Part shown: positions 3,670 through 36,928 of the stretch, piece by piece
Layout of the letters: the number at the start of each line of letters is the position of its first letter
How positions within the stretch are numbered: the stretch's first letter is position 1
Assembly: GCA_040390045.1 (NCBI GenBank)
Contig: JAZJZC010000001.1
Location: 36,345-100,344 of the forward strand
DNA length: 64,000 nucleotides
Direction of reading: 5' to 3'
From: Patescibacteria group bacterium
GTDB lineage: Bacteria; Patescibacteriota; Minisyncoccia; Phycocordibacterales; SIBU01
Notes under the pieces: generated by a model
The model's database searches: none
What the model saw: the letters and a program-made list of their open reading frames with translations, nothing else
What the model was told of the DNA's origin: nothing
Made by a program: the position numbers and the translations under genes

Positions 3670-6600
3670 TTATACAACAACATTAAGTAACCTGCCTTTG
3701 ACGTAAATTAATTTTTTTATCGGCAATTCAGCAATCCATTTTTTAATTTCTGGTAAATTGAGCGCCAGCTCTTTCGCTTCTGCTTCAGTCAACTCAGTTT
3801 CGGTATTCAAGGTGGAACGCATTTTACCGTTAACCTGAATCACCAAAACTCCCCCACTTTTTGAGGCTAATTTGGAATCATACACAGGCCAGGAACTCAG
3901 GTGAATAGATTTTTTATTGCCCAACAGAGACCATAATTCATCAGTAATGTGCGGCGCAAACGGAGCCAAAAGTTGCAACAAAATTTCGTACTCTTTCCGG
4001 GAAACAGTTTCCGCTTTTTCAAATTCATTGAGCAAGACCATCATGGCGCTCACTGCGGTATTAAATCGCATCGCCTCGATGTCTTCGGAAACTTTTTTGA
4101 TAGTCTTATGCAACAGAGTAGATTCATGATTCACGATTTTAGATTCAGGATTTTCTTGATTCCTATTCTTGAATCGTGATTCTTGAATCGTGATTCTTTC
4201 CTTGAGCTTCCAGACTCGCTCAAGGAATCTCCTTGGTCCCACCATGCTTTCTGTAGACCACGCAATATGCTGATCGAAAGGTCCCATAAACATTTCGTAG
4301 AGACGCAAGGTGTCAGCGCCGAATGTTTTAATAAGCGTGTCAGGGTTAACAACGTTTCCCAACGATTTAGACATTTTTACTCCACCTTCACCCAAAATTA
4401 ATCCGTGTGATGTACGTTTCAAATACGGCTCACTTGTGGGAACCAGACCTAAGTCAAAAAGAAATTTATGCCAAAAACGTGAGTACAAAAGGTGCAAGGT
4501 TGTGTGTTCCATGCCACCGTTGTACCAATCAACCGGTGTCCAGTAATCAAGTGCGCTCTTATTTTTTAAATCAAAACTTTTACCTTTTTTTACGACGTAC
4601 GCGAGATAATACCAAGAAGATCCAGCCCAATTTGGCATGGTGTCTGTTTCGCGACGAGCTGGGCCTTTGCAAACCGGACACTTCACGTTGACCCACTTTG
4701 AAATACTAGCAAGTGGCGATTCGCCGGTATCAGTTGGCTTGTAATTTTTCACGTTCGGAAGTTTCAGCGGCAGATCTTTTTCAGCGAGTGGCACAATGCC
4801 ACATTTTTCACAATGAATGACAGGAATCGGTTCCCCCCAATATCGCTGTCTCGAAAATACCCAGTCACGGATTTTGTACTTTACAATTTTTTCAGCAAAA
4901 CCTTTTTCCTTGAGCCATTCGACAATTTTAGGACGCGCTTCTTTTGAAGTTAAGCCGTCAAAAGTTCCTGAGTTAAAAAGAATTCCCTCTCCCTCGTAGC
5001 AGGTCTCAAGAGTTTTAACTTTTTCAAACAAAACAGGATCACTTGGTTTAATGGAAACCTTGAGCGGGATTCCATATTTTTTTGCCATATCAAAATCTCG
5101 CTTATCATGGGCATCTGCAAATACCGCTCCGGTGCCATATTCTCCAAGCACAAAATCTGAAACCCAGACTGCCATACTTTCTAGGGTTGCGGGATTTATG
5201 GCTTCAATACCCTTCAATTGCACTCCTGTTTTATTTTCTTTATCAGTTCTCTCAATGTCGGTCTTTTTCTTTGAATTGGAAATAAATCGTTCGATTTCTT
5301 CGAGATTTTCGAAGCTCTTCGCTAACTTTTTAATAATCGGATGTTCTGGGGCAACAACAAGAAAAGTACCGGAAAAAATGGTATCGATGCGCGTTGTGAA
5401 AACATCAACCTCTGAAATTTCATTCTTGAATCCTGATTCTTGAATCTTGAATCGAATTTGAGCTCCTTCAGATTTTCCAATCCAATTCTTCTGTTGTAAT
5501 TTTATTTTTTCCAAATACTCGATCGGAGTGTGGCCAGCAAGCATCCTTGATACAAACTTTTCATGGAAAAGTGAGATCACTTTTTTGTAACGCACCTCGT
5601 CCGACTGATCAGACTTGAAAACGCCAGTCTGCGCATCTTTCAGAAAAGCTTCAGTAGGATAGCCGGGCCAATAATTTTTGGTCTGTTCGTCCTGCAAAAT
5701 ATAGTCACTCGGCACAACCTCCTCCACCATACTTCCCGCCTCATCGGTAAATGAAGTGGCATAGTGAAAATTAGCGGGAGAGCTTCCGCCGACTGTTTTT
5801 AAGAAATTCTTGAGAAATTCTATGACCTCTTCATCAGTGGCACGTTCACTGTTTGGATTAGCATGCTTTCGCATGTGGACCATAACACCGTTATTCTCTG
5901 GCCATTTTTCAATCCAGAAAATATTATCGGTGGCAATAGTGGGAAAGCCAGTTTTTTTGAAATAAAACTCAGACTTCATTCTGGCATTTTCCTTGAAATC
6001 ATCGCCCTCTATTAAACTAGAGTCGTCAACCGGTGGCACGTCATCGAGCGAAAGCAGTTCAATGCCGGCAACACCTGCGAGGCAGGTTTTTATCATTTTC
6101 ACCTTGGCCGGATTTCTGGTGCCAATCAAAATCTTTTTATTATCCAAGTCGCGATCAAGTCGGTCAGCGTACTTCGTAATGGCCAACATCCACTGTTCTT
6201 TTTCGCGTTTCTCAACGGGTGTGCCACAACGCTCACAACAACCGTCCACCACTTCCTCATTAGCAAGACCAATCTTGTCTTTCGGACACCAATTGATCGC
6301 CATCTTTTTTTTGTAGGCCAAACCCTTCTCGAGAAATTTCAAAAAAATCCATTGCGTCCATTTGTAATATTCCGGATCGGTGGTGTTGATTTCCCGCGAC
6401 CAATCAAAACTAAACCCCAACTCTTTAAGCTGACGTTGGAAATTTTCGGTGTTTTTTTTGGTCACAATCGCCGGATGAATCCCGGTTTTGATGGCGTAAT
6501 TTTCCGTCGGCAATCCGAACGCATCCCAACCGATTGGGTACAACACTTCAAAACCTTCCGCTCGACGCTTGCGAGCGATTACATCCATAGCAGTATTCGA

Positions 6601-6816
6601 GCGAATATGCCCGACATGCAAACCATCTCCAGACGGATAGGGAAATTCGATTAGACCGTAAAATTTCTTGGGCGCAGAACTTCGCGGAACAGACGCGGAA
6701 CCACGCGGAAATTTCTGATCCTTAGCTTGGTTGAGTTTATTTTTCTCCCAAATCTTTTGCCATTTTTTTTCAATTTTTAGATGGTTGTAGTCGTTCATTA
6801 CAGAAAATAATGCCAC
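3670..6816 (-). CDS. leuS: Leucyl-tRNA synthetase with an ~200-aa Ham1/ITPase-like domain inserted ahead of the NWIG/CP1 editing region
   Basis: HVGH-type HIGH motif (GLHVGHIRS), KMSKS, CP1 editing domain, anticodon-binding and C-terminal domains all present. The insertion is residues ~228-426, between ...ADRLDRDLDNK and ...QQKNWIGKSEG. E. coli LeuS has only ~13 aa there. Confidence 0.9.
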   Translation of the reverse strand: MALFSVMNDYNHLKIEKKWQKIWEKNKLNQAKDQKFPRGSASVPRSSAPKKFYGLIEFPYPSGDGLHVGHIRSNTAMDVIARKRRAEGFEVLYPIGWDAFGLPTENYAIKTGIHPAIVTKKNTENFQRQLKELGFSFDWSREINTTDPEYYKWTQWIFLKFLEKGLAYKKKMAINWCPKDKIGLANEEVVDGCCERCGTPVEKREKEQWMLAITKYADRLDRDLDNKKILIGTRNPAKVKMIKTCLAGVAGIELLSLDDVPPVDDSSLIEGDDFKENARMKSEFYFKKTGFPTIATDNIFWIEKWPENNGVMVHMRKHANPNSERATDEEVIEFLKNFLKTVGGSSPANFHYATSFTDEAGSMVEEVVPSDYILQDEQTKNYWPGYPTEAFLKDAQTGVFKSDQSDEVRYKKVISLFHEKFVSRMLAGHTPIEYLEKIKLQQKNWIGKSEGAQIRFKIQESGFKNEISEVDVFTTRIDTIFSGTFLVVAPEHPIIKKLAKSFENLEEIERFISNSKKKTDIERTDKENKTGVQLKGIEAINPATLESMAVWVSDFVLGEYGTGAVFADAHDKRDFDMAKKYGIPLKVSIKPSDPVLFEKVKTLETCYEGEGILFNSGTFDGLTSKEARPKIVEWLKEKGFAEKIVKYKIRDWVFSRQRYWGEPIPVIHCEKCGIVPLAEKDLPLKLPNVKNYKPTDTGESPLASISKWVNVKCPVCKGPARRETDTMPNWAGSSWYYLAYVVKKGKSFDLKNKSALDYWTPVDWYNGGMEHTTLHLLYSRFWHKFLFDLGLVPTSEPYLKRTSHGLILGEGGVKMSKSLGNVVNPDTLIKTFGADTLRLYEMFMGPFDQHIAWSTESMVGPRRFLERVWKLKERITIQESRFKNRNQENPESKIVNHESTLLHKTIKKVSEDIEAMRFNTAVSAMMVLLNEFEKAETVSRKEYEILLQLLAPFAPHITDELWSLLGNKKSIHLSSWPVYDSKLASKSGGVLVIQVNGKMRSTLNTETELTEAEAKELALNLPEIKKWIAELPIKKLIYVKGRLLNVVV
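5539..6135 (-). other. Ham1/RdgB (ITPase-fold)-like domain inserted in LeuS
   Basis: KILIGTRNPAKVK...GIELLSLDDV...DFKENARMKS...FPTIATDNIF aligns with the Ham1 motifs (ATGNxGK, FxENAxxKA, ADDSGL). The C-terminal half is divergent (NYWPGYP in place of GFGYDP). Confidence 0.5.
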
Positions 6817-10408: not shown

Positions 10409-13400
10409 CTACTGAGTCGTGCTTGTTGCCGTGGTAGTCGAAACGTCAGCGTGCGAAAACAAACTCACAATCCAACGCCAAGGTTTGAGAATAATTGAAC
10501 CGGCAAAGTTTCTGAGGCCTTCGAAGATATTCTTAGGTGATGTTGTACTTGCTGTATCATCTGCAACCGTAGAAGAAGAATTTGAACTATCGTCACTAAC
10601 GGTGGTCGCTGGTACCGTTCCTGTAGTGTTGGCGGAAAAAATATTGGTTTTTCCTGCATCAACTGTTTTTGTTGGATTGTAGGCGTTTCCCCAAAGGGTA
10701 CTCAACATCATCGCTCTGAAATCATTGATTTCAATTTGTTCCGCAACCGTAACAGGAAATGGTCGCTGACAGTAAATTTCGTTTACTTTTTTCTTGGTTG
10801 TGATGTAAGTAAATTCAGTTGGTCCAGGAAGCGCCCATGGTGCCAAGATATCATCCCAATATTTTACTTGGAAGGCATCCACACCAACAATAGTTGGATC
10901 ATCGTAGATTCCAGTGATTTGTAGATCCTTCATGCCTTCAAAATCTCGAAGGAAGACCTGCAATTTTCGGACTTCAACTGGATTATTGTTCCAGCCTTTT
11001 TTCAAGTGATCGTACAAGTAGTAACATACGCCTGGTGTAACGGGAGTCGATGAAGCAAAGGCTCCTAATACAACGCCGTTTACAGGTCCTACGTTAATTG
11101 GAACCGGTGGGCCGTTGCTACCTCCTCCGCCCCCACCACCTCCCCCTCCTCCACCGCCACCTCCACTTGTGCCTCCACAATTAGTACATGGAGCTGGATT
11201 TACTGTGAATGAAACACTTGAACCGTTGTTTGTTGAATCGGTATCAGTTTGAGATGAACTTGCGTTTGCAGAGTTAGTAATAGTTGTACTTTCGGTGCCG
11301 AGTTTAACTTTGGCTTTCAAAGTAAGGCTCGTACTTGAACCGTTAGCCAAGTTTCCAACCGTCCACAGGCCAGTGGTTGTACTGTAGCTACCAATAGAAG
11401 TACTTGCGGAAATAAATTCCAATCCTGCAGGTAACACGTCAGTGACTGAAACTCCTGTCGAAGAAAGTGTTCCGAGGTTCGTTAATACGAGAGTGTAAAT
11501 AATTTCATCGCCAACGCTCGCTGTGGTTTTGTTAGAAGTTTTGGTAATACTCAAGTTGACACCTCCACCTCCACCACCGCAGTTCGAAGTACAACCAGGT
11601 GTGTTTACAGTAAATGATACGGCTCCAGTATTGTTTGTCGAATCAGTATCAGTTTGTGTTGAACTGGCGATAGCGGTGTTGGTAATAGTTGAACCTTCGG
11701 TTCCCGCTTTTACCTTAGCTTTCAAAACTAAAGTTGTAGTTGAGCCATTCGTCAAATTTCCGATAGTCCAAAGACTGGTTGTGGTGCTGTAACTACCGAG
11801 CGATGTGCTGGCGGAAATAAATTCCACACCGGTTGGCAGAATATCGCTCAAAGAAACTCCTGTTGAAGAAAGTGTTCCGAGGTTTGTCAGTACAATGGTG
11901 TAGATAACTTCATCACCGACATTTGCCGTAGTTTTATTGGCAGTTTTTGTGACACTCAAGTTAACGCCACTGGTTCCTCCGCCACCACAGTTTGAAGTAC
12001 AGACGACTGGATTTACGATGACGTTCACTGTCGCGGTGTTGTTTGAAGAATCGGTATCAATTTGAGTTGAAGTCGCCGCTGCAATGTTGCCAATAGTGAG
12101 GCCTTCGTTCCCTGCCTTTATTGTAGCTTTCAAAATAAGGGTCGTGGTTGCATTTTTCGCCAAATTTCCAATGGTCCAGAGTGAAGTTGAGGTGCTGTAA
12201 CTACCAATACTCGTGCTCGCTGAAACAAATTGCAACTGCGATGACAAAACATCAGTGACAGAAACTCCGGTTGCGGCATCTGGCCCAGCGTTTGAAACAG
12301 AGATCGTGTAGGTGACTTGATCGCCGACATTAGCGTTTGTTTTATCAGCAATTTTGGTAAGACCGAGGTTAACACCAGAAATTGGAACTGGAACAACGAT
12401 AACATTTCGCGTAACTGAAGCACTCAAACCTCCCGAGTCAGTGACCGTGTAGGTGAGTGTGTACGTGCCAAGCGTGCTCGTGCTGACAGTTCCGGTAACC
12501 ACAATTTGTGATGTGAGATTGCCATCTTCGAGGTCAGTGGCAGTAGCTCCGGGATCGGTAAAGACATGACCCAAGATAACAGTGATTGGATTGGCACCGA
12601 CAAGCGTAATAACCGGCGCGGTGTTTGTTGGTGGATTAACTGGACCATTAGGACAGGTAGAAGCGGTTGTGGTGTACGAATAGGTTACCGCAACGGAACT
12701 TGAAGCGGTAAGCAAAGGGAAATAACTGTAGGGGCCGGTAGTAAAATCTCCTATCAAATTGAGAGTTGAGAAAGATTGTCCTGAAACATCTTCGGTAACA
12801 TTTACACCACCGGTTGTCGTGCTAACGAAACTTAAAAGTTCTGTTGGGTCAGTAATCGTCAACAAGGCATCACTTTGAGAATATGTGCTTGTGCCAGTAC
12901 CGTATGAACTTGCGCCAGCATAATCGAGCGCGCCATCGGCGGCATTAACTGTAACTGGACCGAAGTAACTGGTGAAATATAATTTTGATAGATGTCCCGG
13001 CACACTAAACGTGCTGGTCGCCAAAAGACCGCCAGAAATTGAAATCGGGTGGGTAGCAATGTTCTCTACCTTTTGATTGATATTTGCCTCAGCGTAGTGC
13101 TTGAGAGAAAGAGAAGTCAGAGTTCCAAGAGCAGGATCGAAATATTTAATTTTTCCTTGCTTGGTAAAATCAGCCTTAGTTGTTGGGAAAATTAAAGTGT
13201 CAGAGTATTGGCAGGAAATTGGAGCAGGAGGTGGAGGCGGCAAAGGATTACAAACAGCGTTAATCTCCGCATCTCCATCGTTTAACATACTACCTCCACC
13301 TAAAGCAGAAATATATCGGAAGGCCTGTGGAAACAACCAAATGGTTGTGTCGTTGTCAGAAATCCAGTTTGTTGGGCCATCAGGGTAGGTTCCAATTTCT

Positions 13401-14449
13401 ATACCAGAAGTCCAAGGACCAGCTGGACTATCGGAACCAAAAAGGGCACCCTCGTGAGCTTCGTTTGGAGTTTCTCCGTGGTCAATAGATGGAACAAGAT
13501 AGACCATGTTGCTACTGGTTGCAGTAGTAGTTCCCATATCCCAAACTCCCCTTCCTGGATAACCACTAAATCCTGCAGGATTGCTAAACACCTGAACCCA
13601 TTTATGATCGATAAAATCTCCGGAATGTGGATCGCTGTTGTATACCCAATCATAAGCAGTAGGACTGGTTTCCTCACCAGTTACCATTCCCGTAGTGAGA
13701 AGAACTCCACAAGAACCGATATTCAAGGTTGTTGGTGCGGTTGGGCAAGGAGCAGTGCTGGTGAAAGAATAAGTTACTACAACAGAATTCGAAGCATAGA
13801 TCAAAGGAAAATAACTCCATGGTCCTGAAGGAGTGCTTGAAGCGATGTTGAGGAATGAGAACGACTGACCGGAAACATTTTCGGTAATATCAACGCCACC
13901 AGCACCAGAATTAACATAATTTAAAAGTTCAGCAGGATCGTTGATTGCAATCGAGGTATCGTTTTGAGAAAAAGTTGTGGTACCAGTGTCGTACGAACTT
14001 GAACCAGCATAATCGAGAGCTCCATCGTACGCGGTTATGTCGACTGGACCGAAATTACTAGAAAAAAGCAAATTTGAAGTATGTCCTGGAAGACTCAATG
14101 TGCTGGTTGCACTGAGGCCACCACCACTTGAAATTGTATGATCAGAGACGTTTTCTGCCTTCTGGCTTACATCAACGATAGAAATGTGCTTGATAGAAAG
14201 ACTTGTGAGAGTACCGAAGGCGGGATTAAAGTACTTGATTTTTGCCTGCTGTGTAAAATCAGCCTTCGCAACGCCGAAAACAATGGTGTCAGAAAGCTGA
14301 CAGGAATTGCTTGTTGTCGTTGCCGCACGTACAAGGAGGTTTGAAGATGGCACAGCCAAAATCATTAGGGACAAAAACATGACGAAAAGCGATGTGGTGA
14401 TTTTTTTCTTGAGATTGCTGATCTTGCTCGTTGATAAATATTTTTTCAT
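10409..14449 (-). CDS. Giant secreted cell-surface protein: signal peptide, two duplicated ~190-aa N-terminal domains, an Ig-like domain, three tandem DUF11 repeats, a poly-Gly linker, and a C-terminal PG_binding_1-like domain
   Basis: N-terminal hydrophobic signal. GVNLGLTKIADKTNANVGDQVTYTISVSNAGPDAATGVSVTDVL... repeated three times (DUF11). GGGGGGGGGGGGGGGG linker. C-terminal VRKLQVFLRDFEGMKDLQITGIYDDPTIVGVDAFQVKY resembles a peptidoglycan-binding domain. Confidence 0.85.
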   Translation of the reverse strand: MKKYLSTSKISNLKKKITTSLFVMFLSLMILAVPSSNLLVRAATTTSNSCQLSDTIVFGVAKADFTQQAKIKYFNPAFGTLTSLSIKHISIVDVSQKAENVSDHTISSGGGLSATSTLSLPGHTSNLLFSSNFGPVDITAYDGALDYAGSSSYDTGTTTFSQNDTSIAINDPAELLNYVNSGAGGVDITENVSGQSFSFLNIASSTPSGPWSYFPLIYASNSVVVTYSFTSTAPCPTAPTTLNIGSCGVLLTTGMVTGEETSPTAYDWVYNSDPHSGDFIDHKWVQVFSNPAGFSGYPGRGVWDMGTTTATSSNMVYLVPSIDHGETPNEAHEGALFGSDSPAGPWTSGIEIGTYPDGPTNWISDNDTTIWLFPQAFRYISALGGGSMLNDGDAEINAVCNPLPPPPPAPISCQYSDTLIFPTTKADFTKQGKIKYFDPALGTLTSLSLKHYAEANINQKVENIATHPISISGGLLATSTFSVPGHLSKLYFTSYFGPVTVNAADGALDYAGASSYGTGTSTYSQSDALLTITDPTELLSFVSTTTGGVNVTEDVSGQSFSTLNLIGDFTTGPYSYFPLLTASSSVAVTYSYTTTASTCPNGPVNPPTNTAPVITLVGANPITVILGHVFTDPGATATDLEDGNLTSQIVVTGTVSTSTLGTYTLTYTVTDSGGLSASVTRNVIVVPVPISGVNLGLTKIADKTNANVGDQVTYTISVSNAGPDAATGVSVTDVLSSQLQFVSASTSIGSYSTSTSLWTIGNLAKNATTTLILKATIKAGNEGLTIGNIAAATSTQIDTDSSNNTATVNVIVNPVVCTSNCGGGGTSGVNLSVTKTANKTTANVGDEVIYTIVLTNLGTLSSTGVSLSDILPTGVEFISASTSLGSYSTTTSLWTIGNLTNGSTTTLVLKAKVKAGTEGSTITNTAIASSTQTDTDSTNNTGAVSFTVNTPGCTSNCGGGGGGVNLSITKTSNKTTASVGDEIIYTLVLTNLGTLSSTGVSVTDVLPAGLEFISASTSIGSYSTTTGLWTVGNLANGSSTSLTLKAKVKLGTESTTITNSANASSSQTDTDSTNNGSSVSFTVNPAPCTNCGGTSGGGGGGGGGGGGGGGSNGPPVPINVGPVNGVVLGAFASSTPVTPGVCYYLYDHLKKGWNNNPVEVRKLQVFLRDFEGMKDLQITGIYDDPTIVGVDAFQVKYWDDILAPWALPGPTEFTYITTKKKVNEIYCQRPFPVTVAEQIEINDFRAMMLSTLWGNAYNPTKTVDAGKTNIFSANTTGTVPATTVSDDSSNSSSTVADDTASTTSPKNIFEGLRNFAGSIILKPWRWIVSLFSHADVSTTTATSTTQ
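11270..12385 (-). repeat. Three ~360-bp nucleotide-level tandem repeats encoding the DUF11 modules of the surface protein
   Basis: Near-identical stretches (e.g. ccaatagaagtacttgcggaaataaattccaa / ccgagcgatgtgctggcggaaataaattccac) recur at ~360-bp spacing. Coding, not CRISPR. Confidence 0.7.
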
Positions 14450-16433: not shown

Positions 16434-16466
16434 AACTTTAGAGTAAATAAAATCTAACCTGCTGGA

Positions 16467-16600
16467 TGCAATTCGAGGCGCAAACGATTTTGCGACTAAA
16501 ACGTAGGTCGCGCTTCAATGGACGTTGCGCGACACGATTCCGACTGAATCGACATTGCGGAAGCAAACGGAGCTGGCGACAATGAAATGCGCCAAAGGCG
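16467..16600 (+). ncRNA. Candidate structured RNA element, copy X1 (paralog of 36519-36670 and 49132-49283)
   Basis: ~85-90% identical to the X3 core over the first 100 nt. Conserved hairpins gtcgcgc-ttcaatggacgtt-gcgcgac and cgattc-cgact-gaatcg. It lies between two minus-strand genes and abuts the ABC transporter stop codon. Confidence 0.45.
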
Positions 16601-16606
16601 GATGTT

Positions 16607-18412
16607 CTACTCTTGGATGAAACCACCAGCTTGAAGATTCCACAACTTAGTATACAAACTCGCGCTGTTCTTCAGTAAATCATCATGACTTCCCTCCTCA
16701 ATCACCTTTCCTTTCTCAAGCACAATAATTCTATCCATTTTTCGAATGGTTGAAAGTCGGTGAGCAATGACAATAACTGTCTTACCTTTCATCAGTTTAT
16801 CGAGCGCATCTTGAATAAGAGACTCGGAGTGAGAATCGAGACTTGAGGTGGCTTCATCAAGAACTAAAATCGGTGCGTTTTTAAGGATAGCTCGAGCAAT
16901 TGCCACGCGTTGACGTTCCCCACCAGAAAGCTTAATGCCACGCTCTCCGACATACGTGTCGTATTTTTGCGGCAACCCAAGCGCAAACTCATCACAATGC
17001 GCCAATCGTGCCGCTTCGTACACTTCAGCCTCGCTCGCCTCTCTTCGTCCGTAGCGGATATTTTCAAGAAGGGTTCTGTGAAAAAGAATCGGATCTTGTG
17101 GCACCAAACTGACATTTTTTCGTAAACTTTCCTGCGTAACATTTCGAATCTCCTGCCCATCAATTGAAATTCCCCCAGCGGATACATCGTACAGACGGAG
17201 TAACAATTTTACGAATGTTGATTTACCCGCGCCAGACGGGCCGATCAAAGCCACCTTCTCCCCTGCGGCAATTTTTAGATTTAAACCTTGGAGAACAATC
17301 TGTTCGCCGCCGAAAGAAAAATCAACATTATGAAAGTCGACTGAACCTGAGGGAACAGAAAGTATGCTGGCATCTGCCGCATCCAAAATGTCCTGCGGCA
17401 ACTTCAAAATATCAACCATTTCCTTGGCATCGGCAATCGATTCGTACATACTGCGAATAATTCTACTGATGCCCCAGAGCTTACCGTTGAGTCCTAACAA
17501 ATAGACTTGGATCAAGACAAACGAGCCGACAGTTATGGCTCCGGTCTGCCAATATTTGATGGCAAAATAGAATAACAAAAATTCAATGAAAATAAGTAGA
17601 AGTGCTTGCCCTGTTTCCACGCCATTTTGCAGGTTCCAGGCAAATCGTGTCAATCGAGCTTGCTCATTGGTCACTTCGCGAAAATATTTTGATTCGGATT
17701 TCACACCCGTAAAAAGATGAATGGTGTTTTGATTTGTGATGGCGTCAGCCAAAACACCTGTCGTAAAGGAGTCCATAGCGGCACGTTTGACATCATATTT
17801 TAATTTCCAACGGGAAAAAAGATAATTAAAAAGCAAAAATACAAAAACCCAAGCGAGCAAAACTTCAGTAATGATGTGGCTGGTAAACCAAAGTACGAAA
17901 CAGATGCCGATCACCTGCACCACGAGTGGCAAAATTTCATAGACAATTCTATCCTGAAAAACCTCGAAGGCCCGGGCAAAACGGTTGACGCGCTGAACCA
18001 AAGAGCCGGTAAAGTTGTTGGCATAAAAAGAGTAGGAATGATTGATCATGTACTCAAAAGCTTGCTGACGCAGTCGGGCAATGACTCTCGAATCGCAATA
18101 GGAGGAGGAGAATGTGGCAATGCGCCACCCTACCCACTGGATGATATTTAAAACCAAGATAAGAAAGATGATACTAAATAATTGTGGACTTTTATCGGAA
18201 ACGGAGAGAGTGCCGAGATTTAGAACATCGAAGAAATTCTTATAATAAATAGGAATGACAACTGACACAGCGTTGGCAAAAATCGCGCTCGAAAAAATTA
18301 TGAAAAGCGAAAGTTTGTTTGGCCGAAGACCACGCCAAAAAGCCTTGAGTACATCGAAGGTTGTAGCAATCCCGGTGCCCTTATGTTTAGGTTTCGTGTC
18401 GAAGGCTAGCAT
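16607..18412 (-). CDS. ABC exporter, fused permease/ATPase (MsbA/ABCB-type)
   Basis: Six-TM N-terminal domain, GPSGAGKST Walker A, LSGGERQRVAIARAIL signature, ILVLDEATSSLD Walker B. Confidence 0.9.
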   Translation of the reverse strand: MLAFDTKPKHKGTGIATTFDVLKAFWRGLRPNKLSLFIIFSSAIFANAVSVVIPIYYKNFFDVLNLGTLSVSDKSPQLFSIIFLILVLNIIQWVGWRIATFSSSYCDSRVIARLRQQAFEYMINHSYSFYANNFTGSLVQRVNRFARAFEVFQDRIVYEILPLVVQVIGICFVLWFTSHIITEVLLAWVFVFLLFNYLFSRWKLKYDVKRAAMDSFTTGVLADAITNQNTIHLFTGVKSESKYFREVTNEQARLTRFAWNLQNGVETGQALLLIFIEFLLFYFAIKYWQTGAITVGSFVLIQVYLLGLNGKLWGISRIIRSMYESIADAKEMVDILKLPQDILDAADASILSVPSGSVDFHNVDFSFGGEQIVLQGLNLKIAAGEKVALIGPSGAGKSTFVKLLLRLYDVSAGGISIDGQEIRNVTQESLRKNVSLVPQDPILFHRTLLENIRYGRREASEAEVYEAARLAHCDEFALGLPQKYDTYVGERGIKLSGGERQRVAIARAILKNAPILVLDEATSSLDSHSESLIQDALDKLMKGKTVIVIAHRLSTIRKMDRIIVLEKGKVIEEGSHDDLLKNSASLYTKLWNLQAGGFIQE

Positions 18413-19089: not shown

Positions 19090-19300
19090 TATTTGTGTAT
19101 CACAAATATTTTGCTTGCCGTCGCAAGCAAAATTTCGCGACCCCCGGCTCGCCATCGCTCAAAGGTTTTTTGCATGTGTATCACAAGTATTTTTCCTGAC
19201 GGAAAAATCTCGCGATCTTTTTTCAACATCGTGTATCACGAATCACTAAGTAAATCGCTTCGCAAGGCCTCGCAATTTACGTAAGTGTTCGCGAAGTCTC
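19090..19300. repeat. Three tandem repeat units in the spacer between the two tRNA-Ala genes. Each unit is a TGTGTATCAC box, a small hairpin, then a TCGCGA box
   Basis: tgtgtatcacaa at 19094, 19175 and 19231. Hairpins gcttgccgtcgcaagc and tcctgacgga. TCGCGA(c/t) at 19133, 19210, 19277 and 19288. Position is reminiscent of upstream activator sites ahead of stable-RNA promoters. Confidence 0.5.
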
Positions 19301-19364
19301 GCGACACTCGTTGCTACTCGCCCGCTCGACATTTCGTCTGCTGACAAAATATTTCTGCGGCTTC

Positions 19365-19412
19365 CACTGATAGCAAAAAACCTCCAGCAGTGGAGGTTTT
19401 TTGCTATCAGTG
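19365..19412. terminator. 48-bp perfect palindrome (22-bp arms) acting as a bidirectional terminator just 3' of tRNA-Ala(TGC)
   Basis: cactgatagcaaaaaacctcca-gcag-tggaggttttttgctatcagtg. GC core cctcca/tggagg, with a U-run on either strand. Confidence 0.7.
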
Positions 19413-19483
19413 GACCCAAGCGGGCTCGAACCGCTTACCTCCTCATTGCAAATGAGGCGCTCTACCAGATGAGCTATGGGCCC
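19411..19483 (-). tRNA. tRNA-Ala (anticodon TGC)
   Basis: RC reads GGGCCCATAGCTCATCTGGTAGAGCGCCTCATTTGCAATGAGGAGGTAAGCGGTTCGAGCCCGCTTGGGTCCA. Anticodon loop TTTGCAA, G3:U70, T-loop GGTTCGAGC. Confidence 0.9.
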
Positions 19484-19529
19484 AATTTAAACAAAAGTAC
19501 AAATTCGACTAAAACCTAACTCCAAGATA

Positions 19530-20486
19530 TTACCCTCTACGCGAGCTAAGCGCAAGTTTGATTGAATGGTCAAGAAAACCCTCGAGAGAGAGCCCTACGG
19601 AATCTATTGATTTCCCAAATGCTGAATCGGGCGATAGGCTTGGCAAAGTATCTACACCCAAAAAATAAATTCCACGAGTTGGAGATACGACAAAGTGCGA
19701 CTGTGAGTAATGCCGGAGACCTAGTACCTCGTGAATTTTTTTTGCCATATCCTTAATTTTCATTTTTTCAATTTCAGAAAATCGACCGGGGCTAAAAATG
19801 TTTTCTACACTTCGATCGGTATCTTTACTAAAAACTAACTCCGCGGGCAACAAAGAATACAAAGCGTCCCCACGATACTGTTCCAGTATTCCGCATGCCG
19901 CTTCCCTACCAGCAACAGATTCTTCGATAATAATTTCTGGAGAAAATTCGAAAGCTTTAGAAAGCGCAGACTTCAAATCGGAAAAAATTCTTACGATAGA
20001 AACTCCGGCTGTGTTTGACACTGCAGGTCGTATCAGCGATGGATTGGTAATACTTTTCCAGATATCGAGAAGACTCATCGTATCAATGATCTCTTTTTTA
20101 AAAATCTTATACACCGGCATTCGGATTCCCTGACTCTTTAAAATATTTTTTTCATGACCTTGGTGGTTTGAAAATAATGCGGCGAGATGACCAGAGCCAG
20201 TATACGGAATATTAAAAATATCGAGGGCTCGTTGTAACTTCAAATCTTCTCCTGACTCACCATGGGTTGCGTTGAAAATAACATCGATTTTTTTGAAAGC
20301 ATTTACTGGATCTATTGCCACACCATGAATATGCCAAACCCCGGCCTGATCAATAAAAACATCAACAGGAGCGTAATTTTCAGGCAAACTCTTTAAAACC
20401 TGTGAGCCGGTTTTTAACGAATGGTGGTGTCTCTTGGATTTACCTCCGCGAACAACCCCAACTCGGATTTTTGATCGAGATGCCAT
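19530..20486 (-). CDS. ddl: D-alanine--D-alanine ligase
   Basis: KIRVGVVRGGKSKRHHHSLKTGSQV... N-terminal Ddl pattern, ATP-grasp core, C-terminal catalytic region. Confidence 0.75.
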   Translation of the reverse strand: MASRSKIRVGVVRGGKSKRHHHSLKTGSQVLKSLPENYAPVDVFIDQAGVWHIHGVAIDPVNAFKKIDVIFNATHGESGEDLKLQRALDIFNIPYTGSGHLAALFSNHQGHEKNILKSQGIRMPVYKIFKKEIIDTMSLLDIWKSITNPSLIRPAVSNTAGVSIVRIFSDLKSALSKAFEFSPEIIIEESVAGREAACGILEQYRGDALYSLLPAELVFSKDTDRSVENIFSPGRFSEIEKMKIKDMAKKIHEVLGLRHYSQSHFVVSPTRGIYFLGVDTLPSLSPDSAFGKSIDSVGLSLEGFLDHSIKLALSSRRG

Positions 20487-20516
20487 TGCTAAATTATATC
20501 ACGCATACATGGAGCA

Positions 20517-20575
20517 CGTAACATGCCCGCCCGAACGGAACGAGTCCGCTCGGTACGGGCGGGGAACATGAAGCA
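20517..20575. repeat. GC-rich REP-like two-tier hairpin element (copy 1). Inverted copy at 33483-33535
   Basis: catgcccgcccgaacggaacgagtccgctcggtacgggcggggaacatg. Outer stem cccgcccg/cgggcggg, inner stem cgag-tccg-ctcg. Its RC is nearly identical to 33483-33535. Confidence 0.65.
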
Positions 20576-20597
20576 TGGGGAAAAAACAGTTAAATCT

Positions 20598-21809
20598 TTA
20601 CTTCCAAGAACTTGTTCTTCGTTTACGATGAAAAGCTAGGGTAAATCGGTGAGCTTCAGCATTCGCAAGCAAAATAGATTTTTCGTGAGCTTTTATCAAA
20701 ACAGGATCCCCAAGTATTTTTTCCGGACGATGTTTTTCATTTTTAGTGACCGCTACAACATCCTTCGACAAATTTCGGGTTCGTAACACACCTTCTATAA
20801 CTGATTTCTGCGCCACACCTCCGTCTGCCACAAAAAGAGTCGGCAACGGCCACTCGGGATGATTCAACCGTCTTTCCAAAACTTCTTTCAAACTGGCCAC
20901 ATCATTATTGCCAAACCCGCCGCGGATTTTAAATTTTCGATAATCCTGCTTTTTCGGCTCACCATTTTCAACCACCACCATAACGCCGACAACATCCGTT
21001 CCAGAAATATGTGCCACGTCGTACGCTTCAATTCTCACGAAACTTTGTGTATCGAGATTTTTTGAGGAAGTTTTTATTAAACTGACATCCTGGATATGTC
21101 TTAGTGCAAAAACCGTTTTCTTAATTTCGTGGGCGTGTTCAAACTGTAATTTCTTGGCGGCCAAAGCCATCTCTCTCTCGAGTTTTTTTAATATCTGATT
21201 TTTCTTCCCCGTAAAAAATAACTTAATGTTAGTAATGATTTTTCCATAATCAGCTTTGGAAATTTCTCCCGTACAAACCCCGGGGCACAAACCAATTTGC
21301 CTGTTAAAACATGGACGTCCCTGATTGGGAAAACATTTTGCATCGCGAAACGTAAAAATCCTACGGACAATCTTTAGGGCATCTCGCAACTGTCCCCCAC
21401 TCGGAAAAGGACCGTACCAAACCGAAACTGACGCGGGGTCAATATCCTTTTTTCGAACTACAAGAATCTGTGGAAAATCTTCCTTTGTAACTACTACACA
21501 ATTAAAACTTTTATCATCCTTCTCCCTGGTGTTGTAATACGGTTGAAATTTTTTGATTAGGTCAGCTTCAAGAATAATCGCTTCGAGCACTGAATCAGTC
21601 TTTTTGAAATCAAGCTGGGAGGCTTTCGAAACCATTTCAATAATCTGCGGACCTCGAGTGTCAAACAAATCAGCGCTGAAATAGCTTCTTACTCGTTCCT
21701 TGAGAGATGTCGCTCGCCCAATGTAGAGAATTTTCCGATTTTTACCCAGGAAAAAATAAACACCCGGGGTGTCTGGTAAATTTTTTTTCTGGTAGTGTTG
21801 ACGGAGCAT
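20598..21809 (-). CDS. uvrC: Excinuclease ABC subunit C, short form (403 aa) lacking the C-terminal HhH domain
   Basis: GIY-YIG N-terminus (GVYFFLGKNRKILYIGRATSLKERV), UvrBC-interaction region, C-terminal endonuclease region (FVADGGVAQKSVI...EAHRFTLAFHRKRR). Confidence 0.85.
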   Translation of the reverse strand: MLRQHYQKKNLPDTPGVYFFLGKNRKILYIGRATSLKERVRSYFSADLFDTRGPQIIEMVSKASQLDFKKTDSVLEAIILEADLIKKFQPYYNTREKDDKSFNCVVVTKEDFPQILVVRKKDIDPASVSVWYGPFPSGGQLRDALKIVRRIFTFRDAKCFPNQGRPCFNRQIGLCPGVCTGEISKADYGKIITNIKLFFTGKKNQILKKLEREMALAAKKLQFEHAHEIKKTVFALRHIQDVSLIKTSSKNLDTQSFVRIEAYDVAHISGTDVVGVMVVVENGEPKKQDYRKFKIRGGFGNNDVASLKEVLERRLNHPEWPLPTLFVADGGVAQKSVIEGVLRTRNLSKDVVAVTKNEKHRPEKILGDPVLIKAHEKSILLANAEAHRFTLAFHRKRRTSSWK

Positions 21810-25711: not shown

Positions 25712-25756
25712 CAAAGCCGCCGCGCCGAGTCGGAGAGGCGCGGCGGCTTTTCTTAA
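25712..25756. terminator. Bidirectional intrinsic terminator (12-bp GC stem) downstream of uvrB
   Basis: agccgccgcgcc-gagtcggagag-ggcgcggcggct followed by tttct. Confidence 0.75.
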
Positions 25757-27878: not shown

Positions 27879-27939
27879 GATCAACACTATATCGCGAGAG
27901 ACAAGTTTAGACAATAAAGTTTGTCCTCGTCCTATCCCC

Positions 27940-28085
27940 GCCGCAAGCGGTTCCCTCGGAAGACCTCGGCGGGGTATTAGGCGAGGCAACGGGGCAAACT
28001 TTGTTGTAGAAGAGTCGGCTCCGCCGACGCTCAATTCTCGTTGCGGATTCCTCCCCGCCCCAGAGCGGGCGGGGTATTCTCCGCA
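27940..28085 (-). promoter_or_regulatory. GC-rich structured leader of uvrB with REP-like ccccgcc(c)/gggcgggg hairpins and a repeated GCGGGGTATT motif
   Basis: tccccgccg...cggcgggg and ctccccgccc-cagag-cgggcgggg stems. gcggggtatt occurs twice. GC is far above the local background. Confidence 0.45.
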
Positions 28086-28090
28086 GTTAC

Positions 28091-28128
28091 AATAAAAAAC
28101 CGCAGAAAATTTGTAAAATTTTCTGCGG
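28091..28128 (-). terminator. Intrinsic terminator (minus) separating the 28146-28562 ORF from uvrB
   Basis: ccgcagaaaatt-tgtaa-aattttctgcgg. On the minus strand it is followed by ttttttatt. Confidence 0.7.
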
Positions 28129-28145
28129 TAACGAACTCCCACCCA

Positions 28146-28562
28146 TCAATCAGGTGACACTGAAGCGCCACAGATTTCACGAACCCTTGGGTCCGGTTCA
28201 CGCATGTGTTCCCAAAATGTACGAGGCGAAACCCACCCAAGAATGTAGTGGTACATAACCCGTTGCCGAATCGTTCCCACCCCGCCCCTTTTCCAGCCAA
28301 AATTTCCATGTACCTTCTGCGCAAAAAGATACGACCGGCGCGAGACAAACGCCTCACCATCTGCAATGTGAGGGCGAGAATTTCGTTCGTCTTTCGTTAC
28401 CAGCGCGACCCATCCGTGTCCTATGTAAAACACTTTTGCGTGTCCCCCCGACCAGCCGTTTGTCCCATGCTCCTCGCGCGCGGGCCGACTCGAACCAAAC
28501 TTCTTGGCAAGAACTGCGTGACCATTCGTCGATTGATGATCTGACATAACCAAAATTTCCAA
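28146..28562 (-). CDS. Hypothetical protein in a GC-rich (~55%) segment. Call uncertain
   Basis: Longest ORF among several overlapping frames in a GC-rich patch. Trp/His/Gly/Arg-rich, no recognised family. It is delimited by terminators on both sides. Confidence 0.3.
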   Translation of the reverse strand: MEILVMSDHQSTNGHAVLAKKFGSSRPAREEHGTNGWSGGHAKVFYIGHGWVALVTKDERNSRPHIADGEAFVSRRSYLFAQKVHGNFGWKRGGVGTIRQRVMYHYILGWVSPRTFWEHMREPDPRVREICGASVSPD

Positions 28563-30495: not shown

Positions 30496-30535
30496 TAACA
30501 GAAAAACCCGCCGCGCCTTGCGCGGCGGGTTTTTC
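30496..30535. terminator. Bidirectional intrinsic terminator
   Basis: aaaacccgccgcgc-cttg-gcgcggcgggtttt, a perfect 14-bp stem. Confidence 0.8.
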
Positions 30536-30540
30536 TGTGT

Positions 30541-32821: not shown

Positions 32822-32857
32822 CCGATCCGTCATGGTGGATCGGGGCTTTTTTCTTTT
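32822..32857 (+). terminator. Intrinsic terminator
   Basis: ccgatcc-gtcatggtg-gatcgg ggc followed by ttttttctttt. Confidence 0.7.
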
Positions 32858-33338
32858 AAAACGAAAAAATAATAAAGAGTACAAAAAAAGTAACCGCCAA
32901 AATTAGATTGATGGCGACACCGGAGAGCGCACCGACTAAAGATCCCGCGGCCGCCTTCCAGGCGGCCGCGTTGCTTTTATTGAGCAAAAGTTCCGAAATA
33001 AACACCGCCAAGAAAAGTCCGGGAATTCCCCCGAATGGTGGAAACAAAATACTACCGAAAAGTATTCCAAGACATCCCCACAAAATAGATTTTTTTGAGG
33101 CACCGAAATATTTCGCACCTAAAACTCCCGCAAACCAATCGACAATGAGTGATATGCAAAAAATTCCAGCGAGCACCGCCAACTCGCCGAGTTGCAAATG
33201 TTCAAATCGATCAACGAGCCCGTACACCGCAGCCATCCCAAACAAATAGGTCATGGCTGGCATCATGGGAATAAGCACCATAAAAATGGCTGGGAAAAGT
33301 AAAATCGTAAAAACAACCGTTAAGACAAGATGAGACAT
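32856..33338 (-). CDS. Small polytopic membrane protein (DUF456-like, 160 aa)
   Basis: Four hydrophobic segments and glycine-rich GxxxG packing motifs. Family assignment is tentative. Confidence 0.5.
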   Translation of the reverse strand: MSHLVLTVVFTILLFPAIFMVLIPMMPAMTYLFGMAAVYGLVDRFEHLQLGELAVLAGIFCISLIVDWFAGVLGAKYFGASKKSILWGCLGILFGSILFPPFGGIPGLFLAVFISELLLNKSNAAAWKAAAGSLVGALSGVAINLILAVTFFVLFIIFSF

Positions 33339-33392: not shown

Positions 33393-33432
33393 TATCATTC
33401 ACACATTCGTGCGAATGTGTGAATGATAATGC
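33393..33432. promoter_or_regulatory. 40-bp perfect palindrome (18-bp arms), candidate operator with Fur-box-like AATGATAAT/ATTATCATT half-sites
   Basis: ttatcattcacacattcg-tgcg-cgaatgtgtgaatgataa. No flanking T-run, so it is not a typical terminator. It lies upstream of the minus-strand DUF456-like gene. Confidence 0.5.
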
Positions 33433-33482
33433 AATTCAAATTATCAGGGTTCTTTTCTCTTATGTTCCGTGTTCCATGTTTC

Positions 33483-33535
33483 CTGTTCCCCGCCCGTACC
33501 GAGCGGACTCTTGTACGTTCGGGCGGGCATGTTCT
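33483..33535. repeat. GC-rich REP-like hairpin element (copy 2, inverted relative to 20517-20575)
   Basis: ttccccgcccgtaccgagcggactcttgtacgttcgggcgggcatg. Near-identical to the RC of 20517-20575. Confidence 0.65.
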
Positions 33536-35177
33536 ATGACCTGTCCAAGTGCTCCCATGCGTATTCCCTATCAGCTATTACTTTCTTACCTGGGTTGAAA
33601 ATACCGAGCGGGTCAAAAATAGTTTTAGTTTCTTCGAAAAGTTTGATAATTTCCGGCGAGTACATCATCGGAAGATACGAAGTTCGGATCAAACCATCAT
33701 TGTGTTCCCCAGTAATACTGCCGTGAAAATCCGTCACCAATTTGTACACCTTGTCGGACAGTTCTTTAATAATTTCAACGCTTCTTGGTTTCTTAAGGTC
33801 CATCAGAGGAATAATGTGGAAGTTGCCATCACCAACATGTCCCGCCACCGTGTAGGTAATTTTGTAACTTGAAAGAATTTCCTCGAGCTTAGGAAGAAAG
33901 GCTGGTAAAAATTCTGGACGCACCGCAAAGTCATCGATAAACGGAGCTGTGCGTAAATTTTTCATATGCTGGCGCAACAAATTGAAACTCTCGCGTCTGA
34001 AGGTCCAATATTTTTTTGTCTCGGCTTCATCTTTAGCAATCTTAGTTTTCAATCCTAAATGACTGACCGCAATCTGGGCTTGTCGCGCAAGACGTGACGC
34101 TTGGTCTCTCGTATCTGCAGTAAATTCCGCAATCAAAATTAGTTTCGGCACACCACCCGTGACCACCATCCAAAATTCTGGGAAAAATTGAAACGCTAGT
34201 TTTATCAAATTACTATTGAGTTTTTTCACGATCGCAGGAAAAAACTTCATCGCCACCTTAAATGTATGGTCGTCAAATGATTCAAAACTTTCTGGTTTGA
34301 ACTTTAAAATTTTCTGAGTAATTTCGGCTAAGGGATCGAGACTTGGCAGAAAAATGATCAGCATCGAACTGAAAGGCTTCGGCTTGACCAATGAAAGTGT
34401 GGCTTCAGTAATAAGCCCAAGTGTTCCTTGAGAGCCGACAAAAAGTTTCGTAAGATCAAAAACCCCTTTCACCTTGTCGTACACATTCCAAAGATAATAT
34501 CCGGCGGAATTTTTGGAAACAGAAGGTTTGGCAGAGGCAATCACGTCATAATTTGAGTCGATCAAGGTGAACATCTTTCTGTAGACGTAGCCAAGAAAAT
34601 CCTTACGTGCCTTTGCCACTTCAAGCTCAGCATTATTCAAAGGTTTTATTTCGTATTCGTTGCCGTCAGCAAGTACCACTTTTAAACCCTGAACATACTT
34701 TTCTGTCTTGCCGTAGATTAAAGTTTTCTCTCCACCGGAATTGTTGGCCACAATTCCCCCAATGGTACAAAGGTCACGCGACGCTGGATACGACGGAAGC
34801 AACACCCCTTTTTTCAAAGTTTCCTTTTCAAAATTGCGATAATACACTCCGGGCTGTGCAGTTGCGGAGGTTTCGCTTGTGGAAATTATTTTATCAAAGT
34901 GTGGCAAGAAATTGACCACGATCGATTCGGAAAGTGGACCGCCAGACATATCTGTGCCAGCGGAACGCGCCGTTAGCGAAACTTTTTCCCCATCCCCCGC
35001 TTTTTCGCTGACGAATACAACAAGCTTTTTTAAATCTTCAACATCAACTGGCGCAACGACAAGAGACGGCTTCACCTTAAAAATACTGGCGTCCACGCTC
35101 ATAGCGCCCAGCATTTTGCCATCGGAAAAAACTTCTCCTTTAAAAAACTTTTTGATTTCAGCGGAATAATTCATCAC
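33534..35177 (-). CDS. FAD-linked oxidase (PCMH-type FAD-binding domain plus FAD-oxidase C-terminal domain; GlcD / D-lactate dehydrogenase-like)
   Basis: GGGTSL-type FAD-binding region (SAGTDMSGGPL), GIVANNSGGEKT, C-terminal domain with GHVGDGNFH and GEHNDG motifs. Confidence 0.8.
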   Translation of the reverse strand: MMNYSAEIKKFFKGEVFSDGKMLGAMSVDASIFKVKPSLVVAPVDVEDLKKLVVFVSEKAGDGEKVSLTARSAGTDMSGGPLSESIVVNFLPHFDKIISTSETSATAQPGVYYRNFEKETLKKGVLLPSYPASRDLCTIGGIVANNSGGEKTLIYGKTEKYVQGLKVVLADGNEYEIKPLNNAELEVAKARKDFLGYVYRKMFTLIDSNYDVIASAKPSVSKNSAGYYLWNVYDKVKGVFDLTKLFVGSQGTLGLITEATLSLVKPKPFSSMLIIFLPSLDPLAEITQKILKFKPESFESFDDHTFKVAMKFFPAIVKKLNSNLIKLAFQFFPEFWMVVTGGVPKLILIAEFTADTRDQASRLARQAQIAVSHLGLKTKIAKDEAETKKYWTFRRESFNLLRQHMKNLRTAPFIDDFAVRPEFLPAFLPKLEEILSSYKITYTVAGHVGDGNFHIIPLMDLKKPRSVEIIKELSDKVYKLVTDFHGSITGEHNDGLIRTSYLPMMYSPEIIKLFEETKTIFDPLGIFNPGKKVIADREYAWEHLDRS

Positions 35178-36670: not shown

Positions 36671-36683
36671 TTATATCAACAAA

Positions 36684-36920: not shown

Positions 36921-36928
36921 GGCATCAG

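Follow-up and report, generated by a model that had tools for sequence, protein, structure and literature searches.

Two hairpins on a Patescibacteria contig as probable solo copies of a short palindromic insertion element

What kind of element places the same GC-rich hairpin behind two different genes of one bacterium, and where did it come from? The question is raised by 64,000 nt of a Patescibacteria group bacterium (GenBank assembly GCA_040390045.1, contig JAZJZC010000001.1, positions 36,345 to 100,344 of the forward strand; hereafter, the window), in which a sequence-only reading had noticed a ~50-nt element between ddl and uvrC and, in inverted orientation, between the genes for an FAD-linked oxidase and a DUF456 protein. 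The analysis presented here suggests that each hairpin is probably a solo copy, non-autonomous, of a palindromic insertion element of 32-39 nt that occurs in many Patescibacteria, the bacteria of the candidate phyla radiation (CPR). The element is discrete, precisely inserted, found in both orientations, and present both within and between genes, and it can thus be regarded as a selfish palindromic element resembling the repetitive extragenic palindromes (REPs) and the Rickettsia palindromic elements (RPEs). Coordinates without a label refer to the window, L labels to loci or contigs of relatives, and P labels to homologous proteins. With a GC content of ~43%, the window represents a moderately AT-rich genome, and the nearest relatives of its UvrC (59-75% amino-acid identity) belong to Candidatus Taylorbacteria and Paceibacterota.

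The two window copies and their family

Both sites carry the element as first described, the second copy inverted, and the core hairpins could be delimited to the base (Table 1). The two cores share the layout CCCGCCC-GAAC-G...C-GGGCGGG; in copy 1, CCCGCCC is followed by a GAAC bulge, then by a G, an inner stem with a UCCG loop and a C, and finally by GGGCGGG. The core folds as a two-tier hairpin on either strand (-20 to -26 kcal/mol) with an outer stem of 7-8 G/C pairs, in agreement with the two tiers and 8-bp outer stem proposed from the letters alone. Pairwise alignment extends the similarity of the copies to 59-60 nt, comprising AACATG, the core and GAACAKGAARCATGG. Beyond these units the flanks are unrelated, and the window copies are therefore discrete units rather than pieces of a larger duplication, a circumstance that the sequence-only reading had named as fatal to its proposal. 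The 26-mer GAGTCCGCTCGGTACGGGCGGGGAAC occurs exactly twice in the window, once per strand, relative to an expectation of 0.00 from shuffles, and the two-arm pattern CCCGCCCG-N10-40-CGGGCGGG likewise has only two matches. No third copy was found in the 64 kb by a full covariance-model scan and a relaxed fuzzy search.

Relatives of the element are spread over several lineages. An exact 21-mer, scanned against one genome per species (185,579 species), recovered the whole conserved element in three metagenome-assembled genomes (Patescibacteria, Parcubacteria and Saccharibacteria), together with two chance matches in Streptomyces and Terracidiphilus that lacked the rest of it. A metagenome scan anchored on the inner part alone added nine member loci, eight of them distinct from the earlier matches (L013 repeats L001), besides six chance matches. 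All nine share the same outer stem, even though the outer stem was not in the query, and one carries the compensatory variant CTTGCCCG paired with CGGGCAGG. A covariance model, R1, built from 12 copies, found shorter variants in the same contigs (e.g., CCCGCCCGAACGTACCGTTCGGTACGGGCGGG); alternatively, the element can be described by the arm pattern CCCGCCCGAACG-N8-40-CGGGCGGG.

Consensus, length and reading frames were tabulated for 25 copies. Two parts of their consensus are invariant: a base of 7-8 bp, CCCGCCC(G)/(C)GGGCGGG, and a 5' bulge of 4 nt, GAAC. In the inner stem, pairing is retained although the sequence varies (ACCGAG/CUCGGU, ACCGAA/UUCGGU, ACUGG/CCAGU, GUACC/GGUAC and UGCC/GGUA), and the loop is variable. 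The length is 32-39 nt, or 63 nt in the L004 copy, where an extra hairpin is nested at the apex. No Rfam 15 family matches, either for the window at the gathering threshold or for the locus and L001, L002 and L004 at E <= 10, where only tRNAs and chance matches appeared. In viral contigs, an exact 15-mer gave only chance matches in unrelated coding DNA and the two-arm pattern gave none. Literature searches for the element's sequence and for palindromic elements of CPR bacteria returned nothing on this element.

Precise insertion into palindromes, genes and tRNA fragments

Comparison of filled and empty sites resolves the event to the base. The TGT protein of L019 (477 aa) has four insertions relative to the window's TGT (407 aa), and at one of them its gene reads ...GGCTAATTCGCAC/CCCGCCCG...CGGGCGGG/GAATTAGCC... 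(slashes mark junctions), with exactly 39 nt inserted; PARTYQSPLGTGG is a predicted peptide of the element in tgt. The closest relative of L019 (protein P0122, locus L033) is empty at the same site, reading ...GGCTAATTCGCAC/GAATTAGCC..., and the pair reveals no target-site duplication. The 39 nt lie at the very apex of a palindrome that is older than they are, CTATCGGCTAATTC...GAATTAGCCTATAG. At a second site in tgt, also a palindrome apex, L019 carries 33 nt (PPERADSVRAG) and the more distant L035 carries 39 nt (PPERTESRSVRAG), and the site is empty in P0122, P0123, P0124 and P0127. In the same vein, uvrC-ddl synteny is kept in L030, L031 and L032, where the spacers retain the -10 box of ddl without the element; the L030 spacer has an unrelated hairpin with a T-run instead. 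The element is thus a discrete DNA unit that is gained or lost with precision and leaves no target-site duplication, and it lands at the tips of pre-existing palindromes and in loop-encoding DNA, in both orientations.

TGT itself is variable in this group. Among close Patescibacteria homologues (P0121-P0240), its length ranges from 390 to 478 aa (the L019 gene spans 12056-13489), with recurrent insertions at four hot spots. One hot spot, beside the zinc-binding CxCxxC, holds a GC-rich insert of 6-7 aa, [LSR]PRPxGGAG, in ~20 of 121 sequences, and P0134 possesses a tandem PWPQSGFSG repeat.

Other housekeeping genes also carry the element in frame. The same variable linker of UvrC contains it in L001 (39 nt, bottom strand, PARTERTLVRSGG) and L034 (33 nt, PPERATSVRAG), and a loop of TrmD contains it in L016 (peptide RPNVPESARYGR), where residues 93-114 are unaligned against four residues of the solved TrmD chain 3ky7 and the region is ~18 aa longer. 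Among the copies in tgt, uvrC and trmD, four different frame/strand combinations are in use, so that conservation does not extend to any one peptide. Within coding sequence, the length is divisible by three in all 6-7 copies, relative to 8 of 18 elsewhere, and 21 of the 25 copies are free of stop codons in all six frames. Judged from the sequences, this is the pattern that would be expected of translated insertions among which only those that keep the frame are retained. A reverse-transcriptase gene (RVT_1; L024 39-1181) has its end at a short copy of the element (1135-1166), which itself sits within a 12-bp inverted repeat, TCCGAAGCAATC...GGATTGCTTCGGA; another copy, oppositely oriented, is found at a distance of 440 nt.

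Fragments of tRNA genes constitute another class of site. In L002, L025, L012, L004 and L018, the element interrupts partial copies of a neighbouring, intact tRNA gene, flush to the base and in both orientations, with insertion points in the D-loop, at position 9/10 or in the T-loop. Examples are GCCACCTTAGCTCAGTTGGTA/element/GAGCAC, where the intact gene reads GCCACCTTAGCTCAGTTGGTAGAGCAC; GCCGATGTA/element/GCTCAG; and, in a T-loop, GGTTC/element/GATTCC. The idea of a hidden tRNA intron was rejected: removal of the element in silico (with +/-2 nt of slack) followed by ARAGORN gave no new tRNA, and the host sequences are therefore fragments. Taken together, the element persists where harm is small, namely in intergenic 3' regions, in dead fragments of tRNA genes, and, in frame, in variable linkers at the surface of housekeeping proteins.

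In three of these loci (L002, L025 and L018), an open reading frame (ORF) of ~80 aa encoding a GIY-YIG protein lies between the tRNA fragment and the intact tRNA. The association was examined in reverse by collecting homologues of this ORF by protein search alone and then looking up four loci: L036 (Taylorbacteria, tRNA-Ala), L037 to L041 (tRNA-Ile), L042 (Nomurabacteria, tRNA-Asp) and L043 (Moranbacteria, tRNA-Val). In all four, a hairpin of the family precedes the GIY-YIG ATG by 13-16 nt and interrupts the D-arm in a 5' copy of the downstream tRNA, and in all four the ORF ends at the downstream tRNA's own U8-A9-G10 (TAG). In L025 and L002 the element lies 12 and 24 nt upstream of the ATG, respectively, such that six of the seven cassettes (L002, L025, L036, L037, L042 and L043) have it just upstream of the start; in the seventh, L018, it sits in tRNA fragments elsewhere in the cassette. 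The order is a tRNA 5' copy with hairpin, the GIY-YIG ORF, and the intact tRNA, and L043 adds a second, identical element copy in a tRNA-Val 3' fragment just past the intact gene. By model scan, the ~80 kb of non-redundant sequence from the reverse-test loci contains a single further copy (L036 12-47, within a called gene), and the second GIY-YIG genes in L036 and L042, which belong to another subfamily, have no such hairpin. The cassette nuclease is of the UPF0213 type, matching PDB entries 1zg2 (BH0048) and 1ywl (EF2693) at E = 5e-4 to 7e-4 as well as the Pfam GIY-YIG family.

Several features of the cassettes stand apart from the hairpin. Across L036-L043, L002 and L025, the ORF always ends at the TAG of tRNA positions 8-10. 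It is preceded by a 5' copy (from ~positions 1-24 to 1-37) of its own downstream tRNA, be it Thr, Ile, Ala, Asp, Val or Phe, and tRNA 3' fragments follow the intact gene in L012, L018 and L043. This arrangement suggests a mobile cassette that targets tRNAs and makes a duplicate of their 5' half. Two different lineages (L004 4205-4262 and L018 7790-7838) share a conserved double hairpin, CCCCGAC...GTCGGGG AGCCGAC...GTCGGCT, at the same D-loop position, GCTCAG/.../TTGGTAGAGC, of tRNA-Thr and tRNA-Phe 5' fragments. It is another hairpin-insertion family tied to the same GIY-YIG cassettes.

A candidate mechanism and the alternatives to it

How might so short an element move? The invariant stem and GAAC bulge could serve as the recognition handle for a structure-specific nuclease acting in trans, for which the ~80-aa UPF0213-type GIY-YIG protein is the best candidate. 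Such a nuclease would nick or cut hairpin tips and thereby mobilize the element, and solo copies would be mobilized in trans, in parallel to REPs with RAYTs (REP-associated tyrosine transposases). That the GIY-YIG nuclease mobilizes the element is what we infer from their shared loci. It is a tentative suggestion that hairpin and nuclease together form an undescribed bacterial mobile system, in which a hairpin would be moved into the tips of other DNA hairpins with no duplication of the target. Equally speculative is the further picture of such a system, in which the nuclease would reside at the 5' ends of tRNA genes while the targets would include tRNA-gene loops and palindromes in essential protein genes. 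What would be truly new, if it is confirmed, is the partnership with GIY-YIG.

Several points weigh against the reading of the hairpins as a mobile insertion element with such a nuclease. The link to the nuclease is one of guilt by association, the window itself has no small GIY-YIG ORF, and the hairpin beside the GIY-YIG start could be a 5'-UTR (untranslated region) element of that gene or an integration scar. The window yields only two copies in 64 kb, leaving proliferation in the source organism unproven, and a filled/empty pair alone cannot separate insertion from precise excision. The near-identity of the element across lineages could reflect strong functional constraint rather than mobility. 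As for the structure, covariation analysis of a tight subset, A4, gave one compensatory pair, and 47 of 500 shuffles did as well; the formal signal is weak because this subset is so conserved, and the inner stem is supported solely by the wider set of variants.

Strong conservation would suit a structured RNA that acts in cis, for instance by binding a protein, marking a processing site or stabilising the mRNA, and that is inherited vertically under constraint. Its base is extremely conserved, its inner stem pairs despite sequence change, changes in L021 yield G-U pairs on the top strand only, the element has the orientation of the host transcript in most of the cases that can be assessed (six of seven beside GIY-YIG), and its position 12-24 nt upstream of the GIY-YIG start is constant. 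Such an RNA is nevertheless unlikely, given the copies in coding sequence in four frame/strand combinations and in dead tRNA fragments, the syntenic spacers and gene sites of close relatives that lack the element, and the absence of a matching Rfam family; moreover, exact insertion at the tips of DNA palindromes is not explained by an RNA function. Both orientations also occur (window copy 1 and L025 are antisense), and in the window copy 1 has its top strand (+) antisense to uvrC and ddl while copy 2 has its top strand (-) in the sense direction of the FAD-oxidase and DUF456 genes, a difference that speaks against an RNA role tied to one strand there. A related proposal, that the hairpins act as U-tract-less terminators or attenuators after uvrC and the FAD-oxidase gene, draws on a stable hairpin just past two stop codons and on the unrelated T-run hairpin that L030 has in the same uvrC-ddl spacer. 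It is the least probable of the alternatives, and highly improbable in itself: neither copy is followed by a T-run, a terminator scan of 19300-21000 found 0 sites, canonical GC-hairpin and T-run terminators are present elsewhere in the same window (e.g., 25713-25750, 30498-30538 and 36927-36965), and a terminator would not be tolerable within the genes tgt, uvrC and trmD or immediately ahead of the GIY-YIG ORF. The lack of a U-run, which had already been pointed out in the sequence-only reading, thus means that neither window copy is a terminator.

Location in essential genes and in tRNA-like sequences at loop positions might instead indicate an intervening sequence that is removed or skipped, either as an RNA-excised mini-intron or through translational bypass, for which the GC-cluster-derived byp elements of yeast mitochondria offer a precedent; in addition, many insertions other than introns are known from the stem-loop tips of rRNA genes in CPR bacteria (PMC11270868). 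This explanation is quite unlikely: coding copies are all divisible by three and most copies are stop-free, as expected for read-through and needless for excision or bypass, and the element-bearing tRNA sequences are fragments beside intact genes that yield no new tRNA upon removal in silico. A classical REP or bacterial interspersed mosaic element (BIME) serviced by a RAYT, i.e., an IS200-like Y1 transposase, is the alternative that the sequence-only reading had favoured. REPs are species-specific and extragenic, with tens to hundreds of copies in a genome, and RAYTs are thought to mobilize them. The resemblance holds insofar as the element is a short, GC-rich, dispersed palindrome with selfish behaviour, occurring in both orientations and, in the window, at intergenic 3'-end sites; the 38/39-nt cores are within the 20-40 nt of an imperfect, GC-rich REP palindrome. 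Against it, the ends read CCCG...CGGG with no GTAG or CGTC tag, the flanks vary between copies (TA/, CATG/, CAC/ and ATC/), other contigs have copies within genes (tgt, uvrC and trmD) in contrast to the two extragenic copies in 64 kb, and the element sequence is common to several lineages. The suggested partner did not materialize, in that no Y1_Tnp or RAYT/IS200-like gene, and by Pfam no transposase of any kind, is present among the ~50 window ORFs; the gene that the element flanks elsewhere encodes the GIY-YIG nuclease. Without tag or RAYT in the window, the element is not a classical REP, and this alternative is very unlikely. Each of the four alternatives is contradicted by at least one direct observation.

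The reading of the hairpins as solo copies of a palindromic insertion element invites comparison with known systems. Like the REPs, BIMEs and REP doublets forming hairpins (REPINs) of Enterobacteria and Pseudomonas, the element is a GC-rich palindrome of 20-40 nt with a strand-defining asymmetry, dispersed and often at gene 3' ends, and, like REPs with their RAYTs, it flanks a dedicated nuclease gene (in L043, on both sides of the GIY-YIG-tRNA unit). Unlike them, it occurs at low density (two in 64 kb), enters genes in frame, inserts at palindrome tips, and has a UPF0213 GIY-YIG nuclease, not an HUH/Y1 transposase, as its partner. The GTAG and CGTC tags define the two REP superfamilies (PMC3733652). 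With RPEs the element shares in-frame palindromes in protein genes, occurrence in RNA genes and spacers as well (33 or 39 nt here), tolerance in surface loops, and the lack of an internal transposase. RPEs are ~100-150 bp long and confined to Rickettsia, unlike an element of 32-39 nt with a candidate partner nuclease in several Patescibacteria lineages, and the exact 21-mer had no match in the Rickettsia genomes of the species-genome scan. Fungal mitochondrial GC clusters, double-hairpin elements and byp elements provide a further parallel as short, GC-rich, sometimes nested hairpins of an AT-richer, compact genome that reside in genes and in the loops of structural RNAs, although in another domain of hosts and with unrelated sequences. 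Mitochondrial GC clusters leave short duplications or target TAG, and byp elements are bypassed in translation, unlike the Patescibacteria element, which appears to be translated given its lengths divisible by three.

Two further comparisons concern structure and host. Conserved basal arms, extrahelical bases and a variable apex are also seen in integron attC sites and in the end hairpins of IS200/IS605 elements (palindrome-associated transposable elements, PATEs), and IS200/IS605 elements likewise insert without target duplication. The element differs from attC in that its arms read GCCCGAAC and GTACGGGC with no RYYYAAC/GTTRRRY core sites and no integrase in the window, and from IS200/IS605 in that there is no TnpA or TnpB nearby and no conserved tetranucleotide 5' of the insertion point. 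The closest biological precedent comes from the same bacteria: CPR rRNA genes have many short insertions that lack ORFs, as well as non-intron insertions that encode GIY-YIG proteins, and most are situated at the top or the base of a stem-loop (PMC11270868). They share the host group and the preference for loop tips, but are described without this hairpin sequence, tRNA-gene cassettes or in-frame copies in protein genes (PMC11270868). 

Some resemblances were set aside. A MITE, a small transposable element with terminal inverted repeats and a target-site duplication, was rejected because the filled/empty pair has no duplication and the tRNA-fragment insertions are flush. A kink-turn, which requires a 3-nt bulge and then tandem G.A/A.G pairs, was rejected by inspection, position 2b/2n being G/U opposite U rather than A.G, and resemblances to sarcin-ricin-like motifs, signal recognition particle RNA, RNase P and attC were dropped by inspection, as their defining positions do not fit.

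To our knowledge, no function or DNA partner is known for the small GIY-YIG proteins of UPF0213. The PDB molecule names of 1zg2 and 1ywl read "Hypothetical UPF0213 protein" and give neither a function nor a DNA partner, and the tRNA-5'-end cassette with its conserved hairpin is, relative to these proteins, specific to the Patescibacteria loci seen. A mobile system of the kind outlined above would, if real, assign a function to this orphan family and explain part of the insertion load of CPR genes. Likewise, should the nuclease link hold, the partnership would resemble that of REP and RAYT with another nuclease fold at its core, and would yield a DNA-insertion system that is very small and structure-targeted. 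In spite of their tiny, streamlined genomes, Patescibacteria have rRNA and protein genes with an unusual wealth of insertions of unknown origin, and the element is one concrete, sequence-defined agent of insertion, resolved to the base. It can mislead gene callers through N-terminal extensions, inflated protein lengths and tRNA pseudo-fragments, and could be useful as a presence/absence character in CPR population genomics.

Gene context and other repeats of the window

Both window copies are intergenic, 3' of the stop codons of uvrC and the FAD-oxidase gene, respectively, and are solo copies with neither a GIY-YIG cassette nor tRNA-like flanks. Pfam upheld the gene neighbours named from sequence (Table 1). 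The extended unit of copy 2 abuts the FAD-oxidase stop (TAG/AACATG/core), and copy 1 has its unit beginning 19 nt, and its core 34 nt, past the uvrC stop. The copy 1 unit ends ~20 nt before the extended -10 box of ddl, placing the element between the uvrC stop and the ddl promoter. The C-terminal domain of the FAD oxidase is complete (profile FAD-oxidase_C, positions 7-247 of 248, Pfam), and the gene is therefore not truncated by copy 2. As an incidental effect, the two copies probably give the uvrC and FAD-oxidase transcripts a stable hairpin, at the 3' end or between cistrons, and mRNA stabilisation is possible.

Table 1. Coordinates of the two element copies and of neighbouring features in the window.
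Feature	Position	Strand	Details
Element copy 1, core hairpin (38 nt)	20526-20563	+	CCCGCCCGAACGGAACGAGTCCGCTCGGTACGGGCGGG; covariance model R1, 64.2 bits, E = 2e-13
Element copy 2, core hairpin (39 nt)	33489-33527	-	CCCGCCCGAACGTACAAGAGTCCGCTCGGTACGGGCGGG (reverse complement); R1, 64.5 bits, E = 1.7e-13
Copy 1, extended unit (59 nt)	20520-20578	+	AACATG + core + GAACATGAAGCATGG; pairwise alignment with copy 2
Copy 2, extended unit (60 nt)	33474-33533	-	First base directly after FAD-oxidase stop TAG (33534-33536)
uvrC (403 aa)	20598-21809	-	Pfam
ddl (D-Ala-D-Ala ligase), downstream of copy 1	19530-20486	-	Pfam
ddl extended -10 box, TGaTATAAT	20493-20501	-	Read from sequence; 6 nt before ATG at 20486
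FAD-linked oxidase gene, upstream of copy 2	33534-35177	-	Pfam
DUF456 gene, downstream of copy 2	32856-33338	-	Pfam

The spacers around the copies hold features of their own. The extended -10 box of ddl, TGnTATAAT, lies only 6-9 nt before the start codon in the window (20484-20501), L030 (2555-2576), L031 (9783-9805) and L032 (11440-11463), implying a leaderless or near-leaderless ddl mRNA. Between copy 2 and the DUF456 start is a perfect, AT-rich palindrome with 14-bp arms, TCATTCACACATTCG tg CGAATGTGTGAATGA (33395-33430), that could be an operator-like site; a weaker relative is found at 51280-51315.

The leader of uvrB had been described as filled with related hairpins and a repeated motif. 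Hairpins are indeed present at 27936-27974 and 28053-28074, together with two exact copies of GCGGGGTATT. Their kinship to the element is undemonstrated, and membership in the family is not supported: they score 11.5-16.7 bits against R1 (E = 0.12-2.4) and have no GAAC bulge. The uvrB upstream spacer (27887-28146, -) is strongly structured (-115 kcal/mol, z = -6.5), with a canonical terminator followed by GC-rich hairpins nested in the loops of others, two of which end in GCGGGGTATT. The relative L032 is without such hairpins upstream of uvrB. Given this strong structure and the absence from L032, they may be accumulated hairpin insertions of other families.

Additional repeats occur in the window. 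An element of ~135-150 nt is found in three copies, 70-89% identical and in differing contexts, at 16462-16612, 36528-36678 and 49141-49291 (+). From these three copies, RNAalifold predicts a multi-stem structure of 39 pairs, eight of them with compensatory changes; no Rfam match was found, and the repeat is a candidate structured RNA or another repeat family. Short tandem-repeat clusters of the TTTTCGTAT type, mutually inverted, occupy two spacers 37 kb apart (2406-2505 and 39750-39866). Finally, AT-rich mini-palindrome repeats (GAATCNNGATTC), often in tandem, are a second short-repeat family entering coding DNA. They lie in frame at 4122-4210 and 5408-5453 in the ORF for LeuRS (3670-6816, -), a protein that is unusually long (1048 aa), and encode IQESRFKN-like peptides; the same mini-palindrome recurs in the spacer after topA (45704-45746), and its motif flanks the GC-rich element in L026.

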